The notes under the pieces were generated by a model, which was not told the DNA's origin, made no database searches, and saw only the letters and a list, made by a program, of their open reading frames with translations. The position numbers and the translations under genes are program-made. A stretch of 64,000 bases of DNA, taken from positions 1,767,633-1,831,632 of the forward strand of contig CAVUMT010000001.1 in assembly GCA_963742595.1 (NCBI GenBank). The letters are read 5' to 3'. The first letter of the stretch is position 1. Each line of letters opens with the position of its first letter. Source of the DNA: an uncultured Acidobacteriota bacterium. Its GTDB lineage: Bacteria > Acidobacteriota > Vicinamibacteria > Fen-336. Shown here in pieces: positions 25,017 through 31,125 of the stretch.

Positions 25017-25052
25017 AGGGGCGCGGCCTTCGGGTCGCGCCCCTTTTTTCTT
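25017..25052 (+). terminator. rho-independent terminator (11-bp GC stem, TTCG loop, T6 run)
   Basis: agggGCGCGGCC ttcg GGTCGCGCCCC followed by TTTTTTCTT immediately after the ompA-like stop. Confidence 0.8.
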
Positions 25053-26281
25053 CAGCCCTTGACGCAGACCACCTGGCGGAGGCGATGCACGACGTCGACG
25101 AGGTCCTTCTGCGCCTCCATGACGGCGTCGATCGACTTGTAGGCCGCCGGGGTCTCGTCGATCACTCCCGCGTCCTTCCGGCACTCGACGCCCGCGGTGG
25201 CCGCCTCGTGGTCCGCCACCGTGAAGCGACGCTTGGCCTCGTTGCGCGACATCGCGCGGCCCGCGCCGTGGCTGCAGCTCGTGAAGCTCTGCGGGTTGCC
25301 TTTCCCGCGCACGATGAACGAGCGGGCGCCCATGCTCCCGGGAATGATGCCGAGGTCGCCCTCGGCGGCGCGGACCGCTCCCTTGCGGGTCACGAGGACG
25401 TCCTCGCCGAAGTGGACCTCGCGGGCGACGTAGTTGTGGTGGCAGTCCACGACCTCCGCGGTCGTCTCGAACGGGGGAACTCCCGGCGTCGACGCGACCG
25501 CGGCCACGACCGACTCCATCATCGACCGGCGGTTGACCGCCGCGTAGCCCTGCGCCCACTCCACCGCCTCCACGTACTCGTCGAAGCCACTCGTGCCCTC
25601 GCGAAGGTAGGCGAGATCGCGGTCGGGCAGGTTCACGTCGAGGCGCCGCATCTCCTCGCGGGCCCGCTCGATGAAGTAGCTGCCGATGCGGTTGCCGACA
25701 CCGCGCGAGCCGCTGTGGAGCATGAACCACACGTGCTCCTGCTCGTCGAGGCAGACCTCGATGAAGTGGTTGCCGCTGCCGAGAGTGCCCAGCTGTGCCG
25801 CCGGAGGATGCTTGCGCGAGAGCTTGGGGTGGCGCGCGACGATGCGACGGTAGCCTTCCGCCAGCGGCTCCCACGCGCGGCCGACGCGCTCGGGGACGTC
25901 GTGCCAGGAGCCCCGGTCCTTCTTCCCACGGCCCGCGGTGAAGCCGACGGGCACCGCCCGCTCGATGCGATCGCGCATCGCGCGCAGATCGTCGGGAAGG
26001 TCCGCCGCGCGAAGGGTGGTGCGAACGGCGGCCATCCCACAGCCGATGTCCACGCCGACGGCGGCGGGCACGATCGCGCCCTTCGTCGCGACGACGCTGC
26101 CCACCGTCGCCCCCAGGCCCCAGTGCACGTCCGGCATGGCGGCGATCCACTTGAACACGAAGGGGAGGCGCGCCGTGTTCTCGAGCTGGCGCTGGGCCCC
26201 CTCGTCGAGGGGCACGCCCCGCACCCACGCCTTGATGGGAACACGGCCTTCGGCGACGAGCTCGATGTAGGCCTTCTCCAT
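25052..26281 (-). CDS. rtcB: RtcB family RNA 3'-phosphate ligase (tRNA repair/splicing ligase)
   Basis: 409 aa, intact. MEKAYIEL..., NHFIEVCLDEQEHVWFMLHSGSRGVGNRIG, HNYV, FTSCSHGAGR motifs. True start at the internal ATG (complement 26281) of the ORF-track ORF. Confidence 0.9.
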   Translation of the reverse strand: MEKAYIELVAEGRVPIKAWVRGVPLDEGAQRQLENTARLPFVFKWIAAMPDVHWGLGATVGSVVATKGAIVPAAVGVDIGCGMAAVRTTLRAADLPDDLRAMRDRIERAVPVGFTAGRGKKDRGSWHDVPERVGRAWEPLAEGYRRIVARHPKLSRKHPPAAQLGTLGSGNHFIEVCLDEQEHVWFMLHSGSRGVGNRIGSYFIERAREEMRRLDVNLPDRDLAYLREGTSGFDEYVEAVEWAQGYAAVNRRSMMESVVAAVASTPGVPPFETTAEVVDCHHNYVAREVHFGEDVLVTRKGAVRAAEGDLGIIPGSMGARSFIVRGKGNPQSFTSCSHGAGRAMSRNEAKRRFTVADHEAATAGVECRKDAGVIDETPAAYKSIDAVMEAQKDLVDVVHRLRQVVCVKG

Positions 26282-26364
26282 GACCGTCTCCCATTCTCGG
26301 CCGGCGGCGCACGAGGGGCAACGCCGTGCTTCACACGCGGAGCGGGCATGCTCCAAAATCGCTC

Positions 26365-26393
26365 TTGACAGTTTGGAGGTCGGTACCTACATT
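26365..26393 (+). promoter_or_regulatory. near-consensus sigma70-type promoter (TTGACA-17 nt-TACATT) driving a short transcript toward the tRNA island
   Basis: ctcTTGACAgtttggaggtcggtaccTACATTgggg in the AT-richer rtcB / tRNA-island intergenic region. Exact 17-nt spacer. Confidence 0.55.
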
Positions 26394-26399
26394 GGGGTG

Positions 26400-26637
26400 C
26401 TGAGACTCAAGTGACGATTCGAATTCTCAATTCGAAGTGCACGTCGGTGGCGAGGCCATCTTATTTGGCCGCGCTACGACCCGTCGTCGGCGTGTCGATA
26501 TCCATGGCCGAGCTCTGGATCGACCGGCTGAGCGGCGCGCTGGATAGCGGGAAGGAGGGCGAAACGCCCTAAAGGGTCTGCACTCATTGAGAAACAGGCC
26601 TTCTAGGGCGATCCCCTTGAAGGCCTTTTTTTGTTTT
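26400..26637 (+). ncRNA. candidate small RNA (~235 nt) bounded by the promoter above and an intrinsic terminator
   Basis: No convincing CDS (only a 22-aa ORF at 26504-26572 without an SD). Perfect 8-bp inverted repeat ttcgaatt-ctc-aattcgaa (26418-26436). Possible long-range pairing tctcaat / attgaga and gtgca / tgcac closing about 130 nt. Confidence 0.3.
26596..26637 (+). terminator. rho-independent terminator (aggccttc ... gaaggcct stem followed by TTTTTTTGTTTT)
   Basis: 8-bp stem, 15-nt loop with internal ggg/ccc, T7 run on the plus strand only. Confidence 0.7.
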
Positions 26638-26794
26638 GGTCTGCACTCCGCGGAAATACCGGAGCCAGGCCGGAGGGAGGTTGTGTCTTCGCGACGGGAG
26701 AGTCGTTAGGTGCCGTGGGCTCACCAGCTCGAAAGAGCGGGGTCTTTGACAACCGACGCATGTCGATGGGCCGGTGAACGACACCGGTCCATGT

Positions 26795-26868
26795 TCGGCC
26801 TGGGTGTGGAGGAAGCATCCCACGCTGCCCGCGTGGGGGGACGGGTTCGATTCCCGTAGGCCGATCCA
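26795..26868 (+). tRNA. tRNA-Gly(GCC)-like, non-canonical (D-arm does not fold canonically; pyrimidine at position 37)
   Basis: Acceptor tcggcct/aggccga. T-arm acggg-ttcgatt-cccgt. Anticodon stem ccacg/cgtgg with loop ctGCCcg. CCA encoded. Confidence 0.45.
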
Positions 26869-26870
26869 GA

Positions 26871-26945
26871 GCGAGTGTCGTCCAACGGCAGGACCTCGGG
26901 CCTCCAACCCGATGACGACCGGTTCGAATCCGGCCACTCGCTCCA
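26871..26945 (+). tRNA. tRNA-Gly(UCC) with C at position 33
   Basis: Acceptor gcgagtg/cactcgc. D-stem gtcc/ggac. Anticodon stem tcggg/cccga with loop ccTCCaa. T-loop ttcgaat. Discriminator t, CCA. 2 nt after the previous tRNA. Confidence 0.6.
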
Positions 26946-26951
26946 CGTTCC

Positions 26952-27021
26952 CCCTCTGTCAACGCAGCATGCCGGGCCCTTGACCCGTGCGGTGGTGGTT
27001 CGAGTCCACCCGGAGGGACCA
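26952..27021 (+). tRNA. degenerate 70-nt tRNA-like element (acceptor and T-arm intact; D and anticodon arms do not fold canonically)
   Basis: Acceptor ccctctg/cggaggg with one G-U pair. T-arm ggtgg-ttcgagt-ccacc. Discriminator a, CCA. The central 40 nt give no assignable anticodon. Confidence 0.3.
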
Positions 27022-27049
27022 GTAGCGAATCCGTTCATGGCCACCATCT

Positions 27050-30267: not shown

Positions 30268-30436
30268 GCCGCACCCGCGTTCAGCGATGTCTGGTCCAAC
30301 AACGACAAAAACATACAACGCTAATAATAAGGACGGCCGGCACGGTTTGTTCACGGTGCGTTCCGAAGCGAGTTCACACGCCTGACCCATTCGCCAATCC
30401 GGTTCCAACTCGCGAAAATGCGGCTCACCAACCGCT

Positions 30437-30511
30437 CCCCTCGTAGGCTAATGCATAGACCACCGGGTTACGAACCCGTCAGTGGAGGTTGGAGTCCTCC
30501 CGAGGGGACCA
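30437..30511 (+). tRNA. tRNA-Arg(ACG) with G at T-loop position 56 and a D-loop lacking GG
   Basis: Acceptor cccctcg/cgagggg. U8. Anticodon loop ttACGaa. T-arm ggagg-ttGgagt-cctcc. D-loop aatgcat (possible C19:G56 swap). A73, CCA. Confidence 0.6.
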
Positions 30512-30543
30512 TCCCCGCTTCGTCTAACGCACAGACGCATCAT

Positions 30544-30635
30544 CCCGGTCGGGAGGCCAGCGCCTCGAGCGGGCTTATACCCCGTTGCGCCAGATCAGCG
30601 CCTAGATCCAGGGGCAGCACCTGGGGCCGGGACCA
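30544..30635 (+). tRNA. class-II-sized (92 nt) tRNA-like element with non-TPsiC T-loop; anticodon unassigned (possibly UAU)
   Basis: Acceptor cccggtc/ggccggg with a G-U pair. A73, CCA. T-stem ccagg/cctgg with loop ggcagca. Candidate anticodon stem gcggg/cccgt with loop ctTATac. Confidence 0.25.
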
Positions 30636-30636
30636 C

Positions 30637-30726
30637 GGAGAGGAAAGGGCGAGCGGGGAGCCCAGCACACTGCTAACGTGCCGAGGCCAGGCGGCCGCGA
30701 GAGTTCGAATCTCTCCCTCTCCGCCA
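30637..30726 (+). tRNA. tRNA-Ser(GCU), class II
   Basis: Acceptor ggagagg/cctctcc. D-stem gggc/gccc. Anticodon loop ctGCTaa. Long variable arm cgaggccaggcggccgc. T-arm gagag-ttcgaat-ctctc. G73, CCA. Starts 1 nt after the previous element. Confidence 0.65.
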
Positions 30727-30750
30727 TTGACCTCGGGTGGCTCCTGAGTC

Positions 30751-30810
30751 AACTCCGTCCGGACGGAGTTGCTTCAGAAACTACTTGAGGTGACTCGTTC
30801 CGGAACGAGT
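30751..30810. repeat. two tandem perfect palindromes with TCCGGA cores (aactccgtcc|ggacggagtt and actcgttcc|ggaacgagt)
   Basis: 10-bp and 9-bp perfect inverted repeats 22 nt apart; the second ends exactly at the 5' end of tRNA-Cys. Confidence 0.6.
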
Positions 30811-30884
30811 GGTGGGTTGGCCGAGCGACGAGGCGCTGGCCTGCAAAGCCAGTTAGCGGGGTTTGAGTCCCCGACCCACCTCCA
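30811..30884 (+). tRNA. tRNA-Cys(GCA) with U at T-loop position 56
   Basis: Acceptor ggtgggt/acccacc. U8. Anticodon stem ctggc/gccag with loop ctGCAaa. T-arm cgggg-ttTgagt-ccccg. U73, CCA. D-loop without GG. Confidence 0.6.
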
Positions 30885-31029
30885 CCACGGATCCGAAACA
30901 GAGCTCAGCGGCGAGGCCGCGAACGAGCTGATACCCCCGGGCCGGCGGTGCGTGTCGCCCCACTTTCGTGGTCGGCGGTGCGCATTCCGCGTACGGGATC
31001 TAACGAAGGAGGTGTCAGGACTGGAGATG

Positions 31030-31054
31030 GCGGGTTCGACACCCGCCATCACCC
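31030..31054 (+). other. tRNA 3'-half fragment (T-arm plus acceptor 3' strand) without a matching 5' half
   Basis: gcggg-ttcgaca-cccgc followed by catcacc c. No complementary 5' acceptor within 80 nt upstream. No CCA. Confidence 0.35.
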
Positions 31055-31125
31055 ATTGGCTAGCTCAGTGGCAGAGCACCGAGCCATTAACTCGGGGGTC
31101 GCAGGTTCAAATCCTGCTCCAAAGT
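31054..31125 (+). tRNA. tRNA-like gene with canonical D- and T-arms but unusual anticodon loop (ccATTaa) and imperfect acceptor stem; no CCA
   Basis: D-arm tagctcagtggcagagca. Anticodon stem ccgag/ctcgg. T-arm gcagg-ttcaaat-cctgc. Acceptor cattggc/tccaaag pairs at 5 of 7 positions. Possible pseudo-tRNA or att-site remnant. Confidence 0.35.

Follow-up and report, generated by a model that had tools for sequence, protein, structure and literature searches.

An accessory island of an uncultured Acidobacteriota bacterium combines rtcB with a tRNA array, a tRNA-like RNA and an SPFH gene behind a putative leader-peptide attenuator

We analysed a 64,000-nucleotide (nt) stretch of the genome of an uncultured Acidobacteriota bacterium (Vicinamibacteria, Fen-336; GenBank assembly GCA_963742595.1, contig CAVUMT010000001.1, positions 1,767,633 to 1,831,632), which is called the window here in its whole length. 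It carries rtcB, the gene for an RNA ligase, and, on the opposite strand, a promoter and leader, an array of transfer RNA (tRNA) genes interrupted by a molybdoenzyme gene and a broken padR gene, a Band-7-associated tRNA-like RNA (b7a-tRNA) and a gene for a slipin-like protein of the SPFH/Band-7 family (Table 1). An earlier note, made from the letters of the window, had grouped rtcB, the tRNAs, the molybdoenzyme and PadR into an accessory-looking island within a housekeeping neighbourhood. Based on comparisons with related loci, which bear L numbers, we put at roughly 60% the probability that 25054-32613 is an accessory RNA-repair and tRNA-supply island composed of two divergent units.

The segment from rtcB through the SPFH gene is missing by blastn from two relatives, L165 and L164, and is therefore an insertion/deletion difference in a conserved backbone, as both relatives are collinear with the window on either side of it. 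In L165 (GCA_974054535.1) the alignment runs from window position 47040 to 32614 and, after a gap of 64 nt, from 25053 to 18756; that of L164 is similar, except that a PEGA-domain gene occupies the junction. A tRNA gene scan found zero tRNA genes at the syntenic site of either relative. The island is present in the closest relative, L163, whose nucleotide identity to the window is 86-88%. The backbone is made up of genes for UPRTase, DUF507, a glycoside hydrolase, a pyridine-nucleotide oxidoreductase and OmpA on the left, whose identities were read from collinearity with the annotated L165, and of two BamB-like genes, a peptidase gene and a sortilin-like gene on the right. The contigs of the relatives were obtained via homologues of the right-flank BamB-like gene (33846-35078), because the RtcB-based relatives L001-L005 had no flank synteny. 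The OmpA-domain gene ends at 24995. At the right border, an open reading frame (ORF) of 846 amino acids (aa) at 32614-35154 on the minus strand was rejected as a single gene, since it artificially joins a tandem pair of BamB-like PQQ-repeat genes (~410 aa each) that are annotated as such in L163-L165; a search for homologues of this ORF gave none at E<=1e-50. The earlier note had drawn the island at 26300-31200 between core genes and had counted the SPFH gene among the latter. Its accessory nature and its left flank stand, whereas the SPFH gene lies inside the indel and belongs to the island module, the true limits being rtcB and SPFH.

Table 1. Features of the island, with positions in the window
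Feature	Position	Strand	Basis or remark
Accessory island, 7.6 kb	25054..32613	.	blastn against L163, L164, L165
rtcB, RNA 3'-phosphate/5'-OH ligase, 409 aa	25052..26281	-	Pfam RtcB
Sigma-70-type promoter, TTGACA-17-TACATT	26365..26393	+	10/12 consensus matches
Candidate leader ORF, GTG start, 53 codons, end ...EGETP-TAA	26411..26572	+	frame conservation
Putative attenuator	26556..26637	+	folding, pair counts
Attenuator region 1, AGGGCG	26556-61		
Attenuator region 2, CGCCCUAAAGGGUCUG	26565-80		over last codons and stop
Attenuator region 3	26595-26610		
Attenuator region 4 and U-run	26613-26637		
tRNA array, proximal, 9 genes	26795..27642	+	ARAGORN, Rfam
3'-half tRNA remnant	~26970-27022		within proximal array
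Passenger insertion splitting the array	27647..30435	.	missing from L163
Molybdopterin oxidoreductase ORF	27807..29951	+	Pfam; start probably near 27894
PadR pseudogene	29953..30267	-	in-frame stop 30103-30105; Pfam PadR 35 bits
tRNA array, distal: Arg-ACG, Ser-GCU, Cys-GCA	30437..30884	+	ARAGORN, Rfam; collinear with L163
Conserved structured non-coding block	30930..31053	+	in 60+ loci, with or without arrays
Band-7-associated tRNA-like RNA (b7a-tRNA)	31044..31130	+	covariation, model R1
SPFH/Band-7 (slipin-like) protein, 369 aa, TTG start	31446..32555	+	Pfam Band_7 4.8e-35

The earlier note had also likened the island to the tRNA islands of phages and plasmids. Had a phage, plasmid or integrative element brought them in, the tRNAs would serve that element by compensating for codon usage or by evading host defences that target tRNAs, and arrays are indeed known from phages and from integrative and conjugative elements (PMC4758250, PMC5966550); the patchy distribution and variable flanks of the present island would agree with such an origin. 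We nevertheless find it scarcely credible, given that no integrase, transposase, phage, plasmid or conjugation genes were found in the island or around its relatives, and that the ends of the island share no direct repeats, the longest common word being a GC-rich 10-mer. In addition, no true plasmid matches the SPFH protein at >40% identity, all such matches being chromosome-sized records, and PADLOC gave no match for SPFH, RtcB, the molybdoenzyme or a 242-aa protein of L067. Both rtcB and the SPFH gene (GC 0.709 and 0.687) are native-like in GC and in GC at third codon positions. The compositional anomaly that had been anticipated is present, but mild: the GC content of the island is 0.666 against 0.69-0.72 in the flanks, and its tetranucleotide distance is raised by ~1.7 standard deviations.

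The first of the two units is rtcB itself. As the note had described, the gene is intact, with a Pfam RtcB match of 1e-131 across profile positions 1-426 of 426, and diverges from the first tRNA group, all of which is on the plus strand. The gene forms a monocistronic unit, closed by a bidirectional terminator (25017-25044). Searches by tblastn with the L005 and L067 proteins found nothing like RtcR or RtcA anywhere in the window, and an exact sequence look-up for the RtcB of the window returned no record. A candidate sigma-54 promoter upstream of rtcB, and another upstream of the structured block that precedes b7a-tRNA, were discarded by eye because their spacing is off by one. RtcB joins 2',3'-cyclic-phosphate and 5'-OH ends, and the unit would accordingly reseal RNAs that carry them.

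The second unit begins between rtcB and the array, where a consensus promoter and a terminated non-coding transcript of ~235 nt had been proposed. The promoter was borne out: a scan of the region gave 4 promoter-like sites against 0.7 expected, and both hexamers of the one listed in Table 1 are near-invariant in 6 homologous loci and also in L163. Of the transcript, the promoter and a strong terminator hairpin with U-run (26596-26637) remain, but the word non-coding is doubtful because a conserved ORF lies inside. The region 26353-26720 is conserved in at least 10 other loci and has a fixed order of parts, namely the two hexamers of the promoter, a GTG or TTG with a GAGGT-like box 4-6 nt ahead of it, a hairpin of the form GGCCA-loop-TGGCC with a fixed stem and a variable loop, a variable middle that bears indels, an invariant GCGCCCTAAAGG block, the terminator, and conserved blocks that continue into the first tRNA. 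In the window a Shine-Dalgarno (SD)-like box, GAGAC/GAGGT, stands 4-6 nt upstream of the leader GTG, and an internal ATG is found at 26504. The frame from GTG/TTG to the invariant stop is open in 9/9 close homologues, at 43-56 codons, and in L163 also. Sixteen of 18 leaders, distant ones with clear SD-ATG starts included, end in a small residue and then Pro-stop (15 were counted by script, and L105, L132 and L115 were read by hand). An ORF of ~22 codons that starts at an ATG was dropped as the leader, since the GTG ORF has the conserved SD and start and the ATG is missing in L094 and L085.

The end of the leader can be folded in competing ways. Regions 3 and 4 are predicted to form the terminator, 2 and 3 an antiterminator, and 1 and 2 an anti-antiterminator. 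The 5' strand of the antiterminator spans the final codons and the stop, extends 9 nt beyond it, and pairs with the 5' arm and loop of the terminator; in folding, the upstream AGGGCG is able to sequester this strand. The full leader RNA folds as 1:2 plus terminator, a truncated RNA from which the 3' arm of the terminator has been removed folds as 2:3 at -25.7 kcal/mol (z -5.4), and at L115 the antiterminator hairpin is the minimum-energy fold of the whole leader. Across 17 homologues the terminator is paired at 96.8% and the antiterminator at 87%, with compensatory changes in both (for example CG:CG to GA:TC or CA:TG), and both values fall to 21-77% with one strand slid. Rfam had no match for 26395-26640 at E<=5, which excludes a T-box, the known riboswitches and the known small RNAs (sRNAs). 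Two sequence-unrelated leader classes (L004/L005 and L137/L139) also pair a conserved ORF of 32-41 codons with a terminator, and the L137 and L139 leaders precede arrays of 35 and 41 tRNAs. Judged from conservation and predicted folds, the ~235-nt unit is more likely a leader-peptide, ribosome-dependent attenuator for the array operon than the non-coding transcript first proposed. The identical type of leader directly precedes b7a-tRNA and SPFH in loci that have no array (L094, L085, L105 and others), which indicates that arrays sit inside a pre-existing attenuated operon.

It might be argued instead that 26395-26637 is an independent gene for a trans-acting sRNA or a small protein, and that the array, a plain gene-dosage supplement, has transcription of its own or is expressed constitutively. 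A strong promoter followed by a strong terminator would fit such a gene, the conserved blocks past the terminator could hide a second start site, and the corresponding unit of L106 points away from SPFH, which shows that the two can be uncoupled. We give this explanation little credence, as the stretch from the terminator to the first tRNA yielded no sigma-70-like promoter, and the unit always immediately precedes an array or the b7a-tRNA/SPFH pair, in the same orientation. Moreover, the antiterminator, one strand of which runs over the stop codon, has been preserved through compensatory changes, and an autonomous gene would gain nothing from it. At L106 itself the full leader occupies 1-365 on the minus strand and runs towards the contig end, and a second, partial leader-like terminator is found on the side of SPFH, at 588-634 on the plus strand; the leader, with an array, is therefore separable from the b7a-tRNA/SPFH pair. 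Past the terminator of the window (26640-26794) we also noted two blocks, GGGAGGTTGTGTCTTCG and GGGGTCTTTGACAA-N-GACG...GGGCCGGTGAnCGACACCGGTCC, that are conserved across distant leader classes including that of L033. Relatives have a tRNA-Trp between the two, which the window has lost. The blocks may be processing signals or a second control point.

ARAGORN made 13 tRNA-type calls in the window, all on the plus strand, nine of them at 26795-27642 and four at 30437-31126. The proximal order (Gly-GCC, Gly-UCC, Leu-CAG, Asp, Met, Val-UAC, His, Thr-CGU, Phe) matches the arrays of L081, L084, L092, L093, L095, L098 and L163, and the nucleotide identity of the proximal array to L163 is 78-95%. The orientation is uniform, the proximal gaps measure 2-104 nt and there is no repeating unit. 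Rfam gathering was passed by 10 of the 13 calls, at only 35-59 bits, compared with 62-75 bits for singleton tRNAs in related loci and 35-64 bits for the tRNAs of related arrays. Because of these low scores, the array genes are best seen as real cloverleaves that diverge from the norm, and the term variant, under which they had first been described, is fair. CCA is encoded in 12/13 calls and these 12 keep their cloverleaves; the His tRNA retains G-1/C73 and the Leu tRNA retains A73. Among the further variant tRNAs that had been reported downstream, Arg, Ser and Cys hold, whereas the call Asn-ATT proved to be the tRNA-like element.

The tRNA-Leu of the window (27050-27125) measures 76 nt and lacks the long variable arm that bacterial tRNA-Leu normally carries. 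We observed the same in a sample that comprised the window and the arrays in L014, L017, L023, L032, L067 and L081-L163: the tRNA-Leu genes (n=45) have a median length of 76 nt and nearly always miss the long variable arm, a few reaching 86-95 nt, unlike the Ser and Tyr array tRNAs, which retain theirs. The orthologous array of L163 has 22 calls in 2.5 kb, one being the tRNA-like element. A 374-aa gene annotated over it by JGI (L163 15619-16743) is a spurious ORF, and high-GC tRNA arrays of this kind can hide beneath such false protein calls.

In the window the array consists of 12 tRNAs and one tRNA-like element, split by a 2.8-kb insertion. The molybdoenzyme and PadR genes arrived as a later insertion, since L163 is without 27647-30435; the spacing from Phe to Arg-ACG is 80 nt in L163 and 80-185 nt in other relatives. 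The note had made both genes part of one coherent module, which fails for this reason. Its observations on the genes themselves fared better: PadR is broken by an in-frame stop, the AT-rich patch at ~30290-30330 is present and corresponds to the PadR upstream region, and tRNA fragments flank the molybdopterin oxidoreductase ORF on both sides. The molybdoenzyme is, however, no rarity. Its homologues number in the thousands and are very common in Vicinamibacterales (the best 120 have 80-95% identity, and those with a named source are annotated to this order), and they sit in ordinary metabolic neighbourhoods without tRNAs or PadR. No NCBIfam equivalog was found for the molybdoenzyme or the SPFH protein. 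On these comparisons, the molybdoenzyme and the dead PadR are passengers and have no part in the module.

Compared with L163, the window has lost the tRNAs Trp, Tyr, Lys-CUU, Leu-GAG, Ala, Pro, Gln, Asn and Ile, and with nine tRNA genes gone this copy is eroding. The whole might then be a decaying relic, acquired once, in which array and attenuator are useless and selection acts on rtcB and perhaps SPFH only. Such a history would explain why 13 genes are left against 22 in L163, why tRNA remnants are kept, why the array tolerates a pseudogene-bearing insertion and why its tRNAs score low against the tRNA model. On the other hand, no damage is seen in the leader, promoter, terminator, b7a-tRNA, SPFH or rtcB, which have 86-95% identity to L163, the cloverleaves with their CCA and the identity elements of the His and Leu tRNAs are retained, and the co-oriented molybdoenzyme gene could still pass read-through transcription. 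A relic is therefore unlikely in our view, although the eroded state of the copy lowers confidence in full function at this locus.

Downstream of the array lies the tRNA-like RNA that ARAGORN called tRNA-Asn(ATT) at 31054-31126, with two acceptor mismatches and no CCA. As an alignment of the whole SPFH 5' region by MAFFT was too rough, it was anchored on the T-loop instead. In the resulting alignment of 52 elements the D stem is paired at 100%, the anticodon stem at 98.5% and the T stem at 100%, with 178 compensatory cells. Only the inner 3-4 pairs of the acceptor stem are kept, its outer three being ~35% paired, which is the level of the slid control, and the elements have no CCA and a variable anticodon loop. 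The covariance model R1 built on this family scores 78.1 bits at 31044-31130, against 27-50 bits for the array tRNAs of the window. A single odd-anticodon tRNA of this kind stands 250-480 nt upstream of the SPFH start with or without an array (320 nt in the window); ARAGORN calls it in 54/68 loci that have at least 600 nt upstream, and the T-loop motif is seen in almost all 68. On its alignment and folds, then, 31044-31130 is a tRNA-like RNA and not a decoding tRNA, and it matches the published b7a-tRNA prediction. Identity with the YrlA Y RNA (Rfam RF02553) was rejected at 22.5 bits against a threshold of 69.

The structured block just upstream (30930-31053) shows a putative long GC stem, a TTCCG-N-ACGGGaTCTAACGAAGGAGGTGTCAG motif and a free-standing T-arm-like hairpin. 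Its homologues show TTCCG-N5-7-GGGTTCTRACGAAGG, to which the lineage of the window adds AAGGAGGTG, by eye a strong SD-like match with no start codon after it, and a T-arm-like hairpin ending in ATCACC often follows.

In the SPFH protein, inspection by eye showed no transmembrane segment and recognized three N-terminal beta-rich repeats before the SPFH domain; its gene has a conserved 5' untranslated region of 320 nt. A metagenome scan with the SPFH alignment gave 80 loci at 58-89% identity, and the counts that follow pool these with the SPFH-bearing loci of the rtcB scan and the window, 85 loci in total. At least 10 same-strand tRNAs, and up to 41, lie directly upstream of SPFH in 14/37 loci with at least 3 kb upstream, and an array lies downstream in 4/36 loci with at least 3 kb downstream. 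Only 3 opposite-strand tRNA calls were found near SPFH, in 2/85 loci. The SPFH-linked arrays come from Acidobacteriota, from Myxococcota and from numerous soil and sediment contigs that have no assignment. Array distribution is patchy, as L164 and L165 are without one at the syntenic site.

SPFH homologues are also repeatedly found next to RNA-repair genes. They stand at 53-57% identity beside rtcR, rtcB and rtcA in L004, L005 and L067, and they adjoin rtc genes in L004, L005, L022, L067, L123, L147, L157 and L159. The order in the Vicinamibacteria L004 and L005 is rtcR, rtcB, rtcA, SPFH, and in L067, a metagenome-assembled genome (MAG) of the Myxococcales, rtcR is followed by SPFH, an unknown gene and a 28-tRNA array, and rtcB-rtcA-RlaP have the divergent orientation. 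The suggestion that tRNA arrays co-occur with rtcB elsewhere was upheld by a scan of 80 genomic loci with genes for close relatives of RtcB: in 8/80 an array of 6-34 genes lies within 10 kb of rtcB, and these loci belong to three phyla (Bryobacterales, Planctomycetota, Myxococcales). In L025, a Bryobacteraceae MAG, rtcB is immediately preceded by a genuine YrlA Y RNA (9636-9774; 73.1 bits against gathering 69), and the rtcB loci of Acidobacteriota therefore carry a Y RNA, or a tRNA array, or SPFH with a tRNA-like RNA. Weak matches to the tRNA-like model (20-22 bits) were noted just upstream of rtcB at L014 9884-9966 and L032 9907-9987, where they end Bryobacterales arrays that are co-oriented with rtcB-rtcA and have neither RtcR nor SPFH.

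We also found a slipin-family protein, 35% identical to the SPFH protein of the window, at an accessory yjbD-lysC locus in 1425/5426 complete E. coli genomes (~26%). This locus encodes in addition a nucleotidyltransferase and a zeta-toxin-like kinase, and a sigma-54-like promoter, TGGCAC-N5-TCGCA, lies upstream (L161 6475-7003 / L162 1501-2029). An unannotated RNA that follows the promoter has the GTGTTCCG motif and a T-arm-like hairpin, with no full tRNA-like fold and no R1 match.

Taken as an operon, the second unit would consist of the sigma-70 promoter, a translated Pro-stop leader, the terminator, the tRNA array, b7a-tRNA and SPFH. While translation is healthy, a ribosome at the slow Pro-stop would mask the 5' strand of the antiterminator, the terminator would form and transcription would stop after ~235 nt, at ~26637. 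If the ribosome lagged or stalled within the leader because of cleaved or scarce tRNAs, inhibitors or starvation, the antiterminator would form. Read-through would then yield spare divergent tRNAs, which would have to be charged, together with b7a-tRNA and SPFH as a proposed scaffold for repair mediated by RtcB. The sequences show the indel, the layout and its conservation, the competing pairings and the repeated linkage of arrays with SPFH and rtc genes; from these we infer that the leader is translated, which way the switch works, that the tRNAs are expressed and charged, and that SPFH, b7a-tRNA and RtcB might act together. The divergent array tRNAs might in this way buffer against anticodon nucleases, as the earlier note had suggested. 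Our best reading is that the module would resemble the Anabaena L-array/rtcB regulon under control by attenuation, and would couple stress-induced tRNA supply to repair. More tentatively, at somewhat less than even odds, long arrays may be cargo of a Band-7/b7a-tRNA repair operon in several phyla, placed between leader and tRNA-like RNA and switched by a translation-sensing Pro-stop leader.

Several points weigh against this reading. Rare codons make up 12/53 of the leader ORF against a background of 9.7% and are concentrated in its 5' half (first 30 codons), which also overlaps the hairpin of fixed stem and variable loop; what is conserved in the 5' half may for these reasons be an RNA and not a translated ORF. 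The GGAGGG...CCCTA motif, also conserved, could likewise act as a signal at the RNA level. No sensor codon is universally conserved among the leaders, and there is no single-codon run. Read-through would need stalling in a narrow window of codons, because the untranslated fold still terminates. The window copy may be partly defunct, with its nine tRNAs lost and its leader separated by the 2.8-kb insertion, and redundancy of the array tRNAs with housekeeping genes is not visible from 64 kb. In the close SPFH relatives L081, L093 and L095 rtcB does not adjoin the array, so that the link with rtcB is frequent but not obligate. Among the leaders themselves, a Leu-Asp-Ser/Thr motif with GAT occurs 7-9 codons before the stop in ~7 related leaders, not universally (26543-26548 in the window). 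GAT is the minor Asp codon, used for 21% of Asp codons in the genes of the window, and a ribosome stalled at this motif would sit on region 1, with the antiterminator strand still able to pair.

If true, the model would mean that failure of the tRNA pool directly triggers a spare tRNA set and a scaffold for tRNA repair; L-arrays would then have a stress sensor that acts in cis, and the SPFH/b7a-tRNA pair would be placed in a physiological context. It is now testable what turns cryptic arrays on, what purpose the tRNA-like RNA has and why SPFH travels with RNA ligases, and a tractable relative may exist in the slipin locus of E. coli.

The function of L-arrays has been studied experimentally in Anabaena only, where ribosome-targeting antibiotics switch on the otherwise silent array, which helps the cells survive, 23/26 of its tRNAs being charged, and where rtcB and the slipin operon alr0739-0740 share the TrcR regulon with it and are derepressed under translational stress (PMC8421152, PMC10272220). 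The pairing of tRNA arrays with rtcB has been published for cyanobacteria in the same work, and the accompanying survey placed Acidobacteria among the phyla with accretive arrays only (PMC8421152; PMC10272220). Like L-arrays, the genes of the window are co-oriented, dense, non-periodic and patchy, with rtcB in the neighbourhood, and they extend L-type arrays to a phylum earlier scored as without them. However, the 13 genes of the window array fall short of the definition of Tran et al. 2016, which asks for a minimum of 20 tRNA genes and a density of 2 per kb or higher. The control also differs, being exerted in Anabaena by the ribbon-helix-helix repressor TrcR on direct repeats and in the window, putatively, by a leader ORF with terminator and antiterminator.

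In attenuators of the trp, his and pheL type, a short ORF stands upstream of an intrinsic terminator and an alternative hairpin overlaps the end of the ORF; a C-terminal Pro-stop slows termination of translation, and Pro-stop leaders such as TnaC are known. The window has a short ORF with an SD, a terminator and a mutually exclusive antiterminator over the end of the ORF. Unlike these attenuators, it would control tRNA genes and an RNA-repair scaffold and has no run of regulatory codons, the logic of the switch being predicted from modelled folds. RtcR is a CARF sensor of tRNA halves that governs a sigma-54 rtcR-rtcBA operon (Hughes et al. 2020, PMC7790460). The window shares with rtcR-rtcBA and rsr-yrlBA-rtcBA an RtcB ligase and a tRNA-shaped RNA encoded beside the ligase, and in the relatives L005 and L067 both rtcR-rtcBA and the SPFH unit occur together. 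In contrast to those systems, the window has no RtcR, RtcA, Rsr or YrlA, and its tRNA-like RNA has a normal anticodon arm, unlike YrlA.

The closest parallel is the system of RtcB, Band-7 and b7a-tRNA. In the account given by Wang et al. (bioRxiv 10.1101/312249), b7a-tRNA beside Band-7 and RtcB was predicted by Burroughs & Aravind (NAR 2016), the cooperation of the three is a literature prediction, and b7a-tRNA was without experimental validation as of 2018; this branch is still a computational prediction. We found no paper that links tRNA arrays to SPFH/Band-7 or to leader-peptide attenuation, with the reservation that Burroughs & Aravind 2016 may note arrays. As in the predicted systems, the window has RtcB, Band-7/SPFH in the same indel and an adjacent tRNA-like non-coding RNA; unlike them, it adds an upstream array and a leader ORF with terminator, and is without RtcR and RtcA. 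The parts are of known kinds, and it is their combination and the likely ribosome-sensing switch that seem undescribed. The window and ~20 related loci unite array and Band-7/b7a-tRNA in one operon behind an apparent ribosome-sensing switch.

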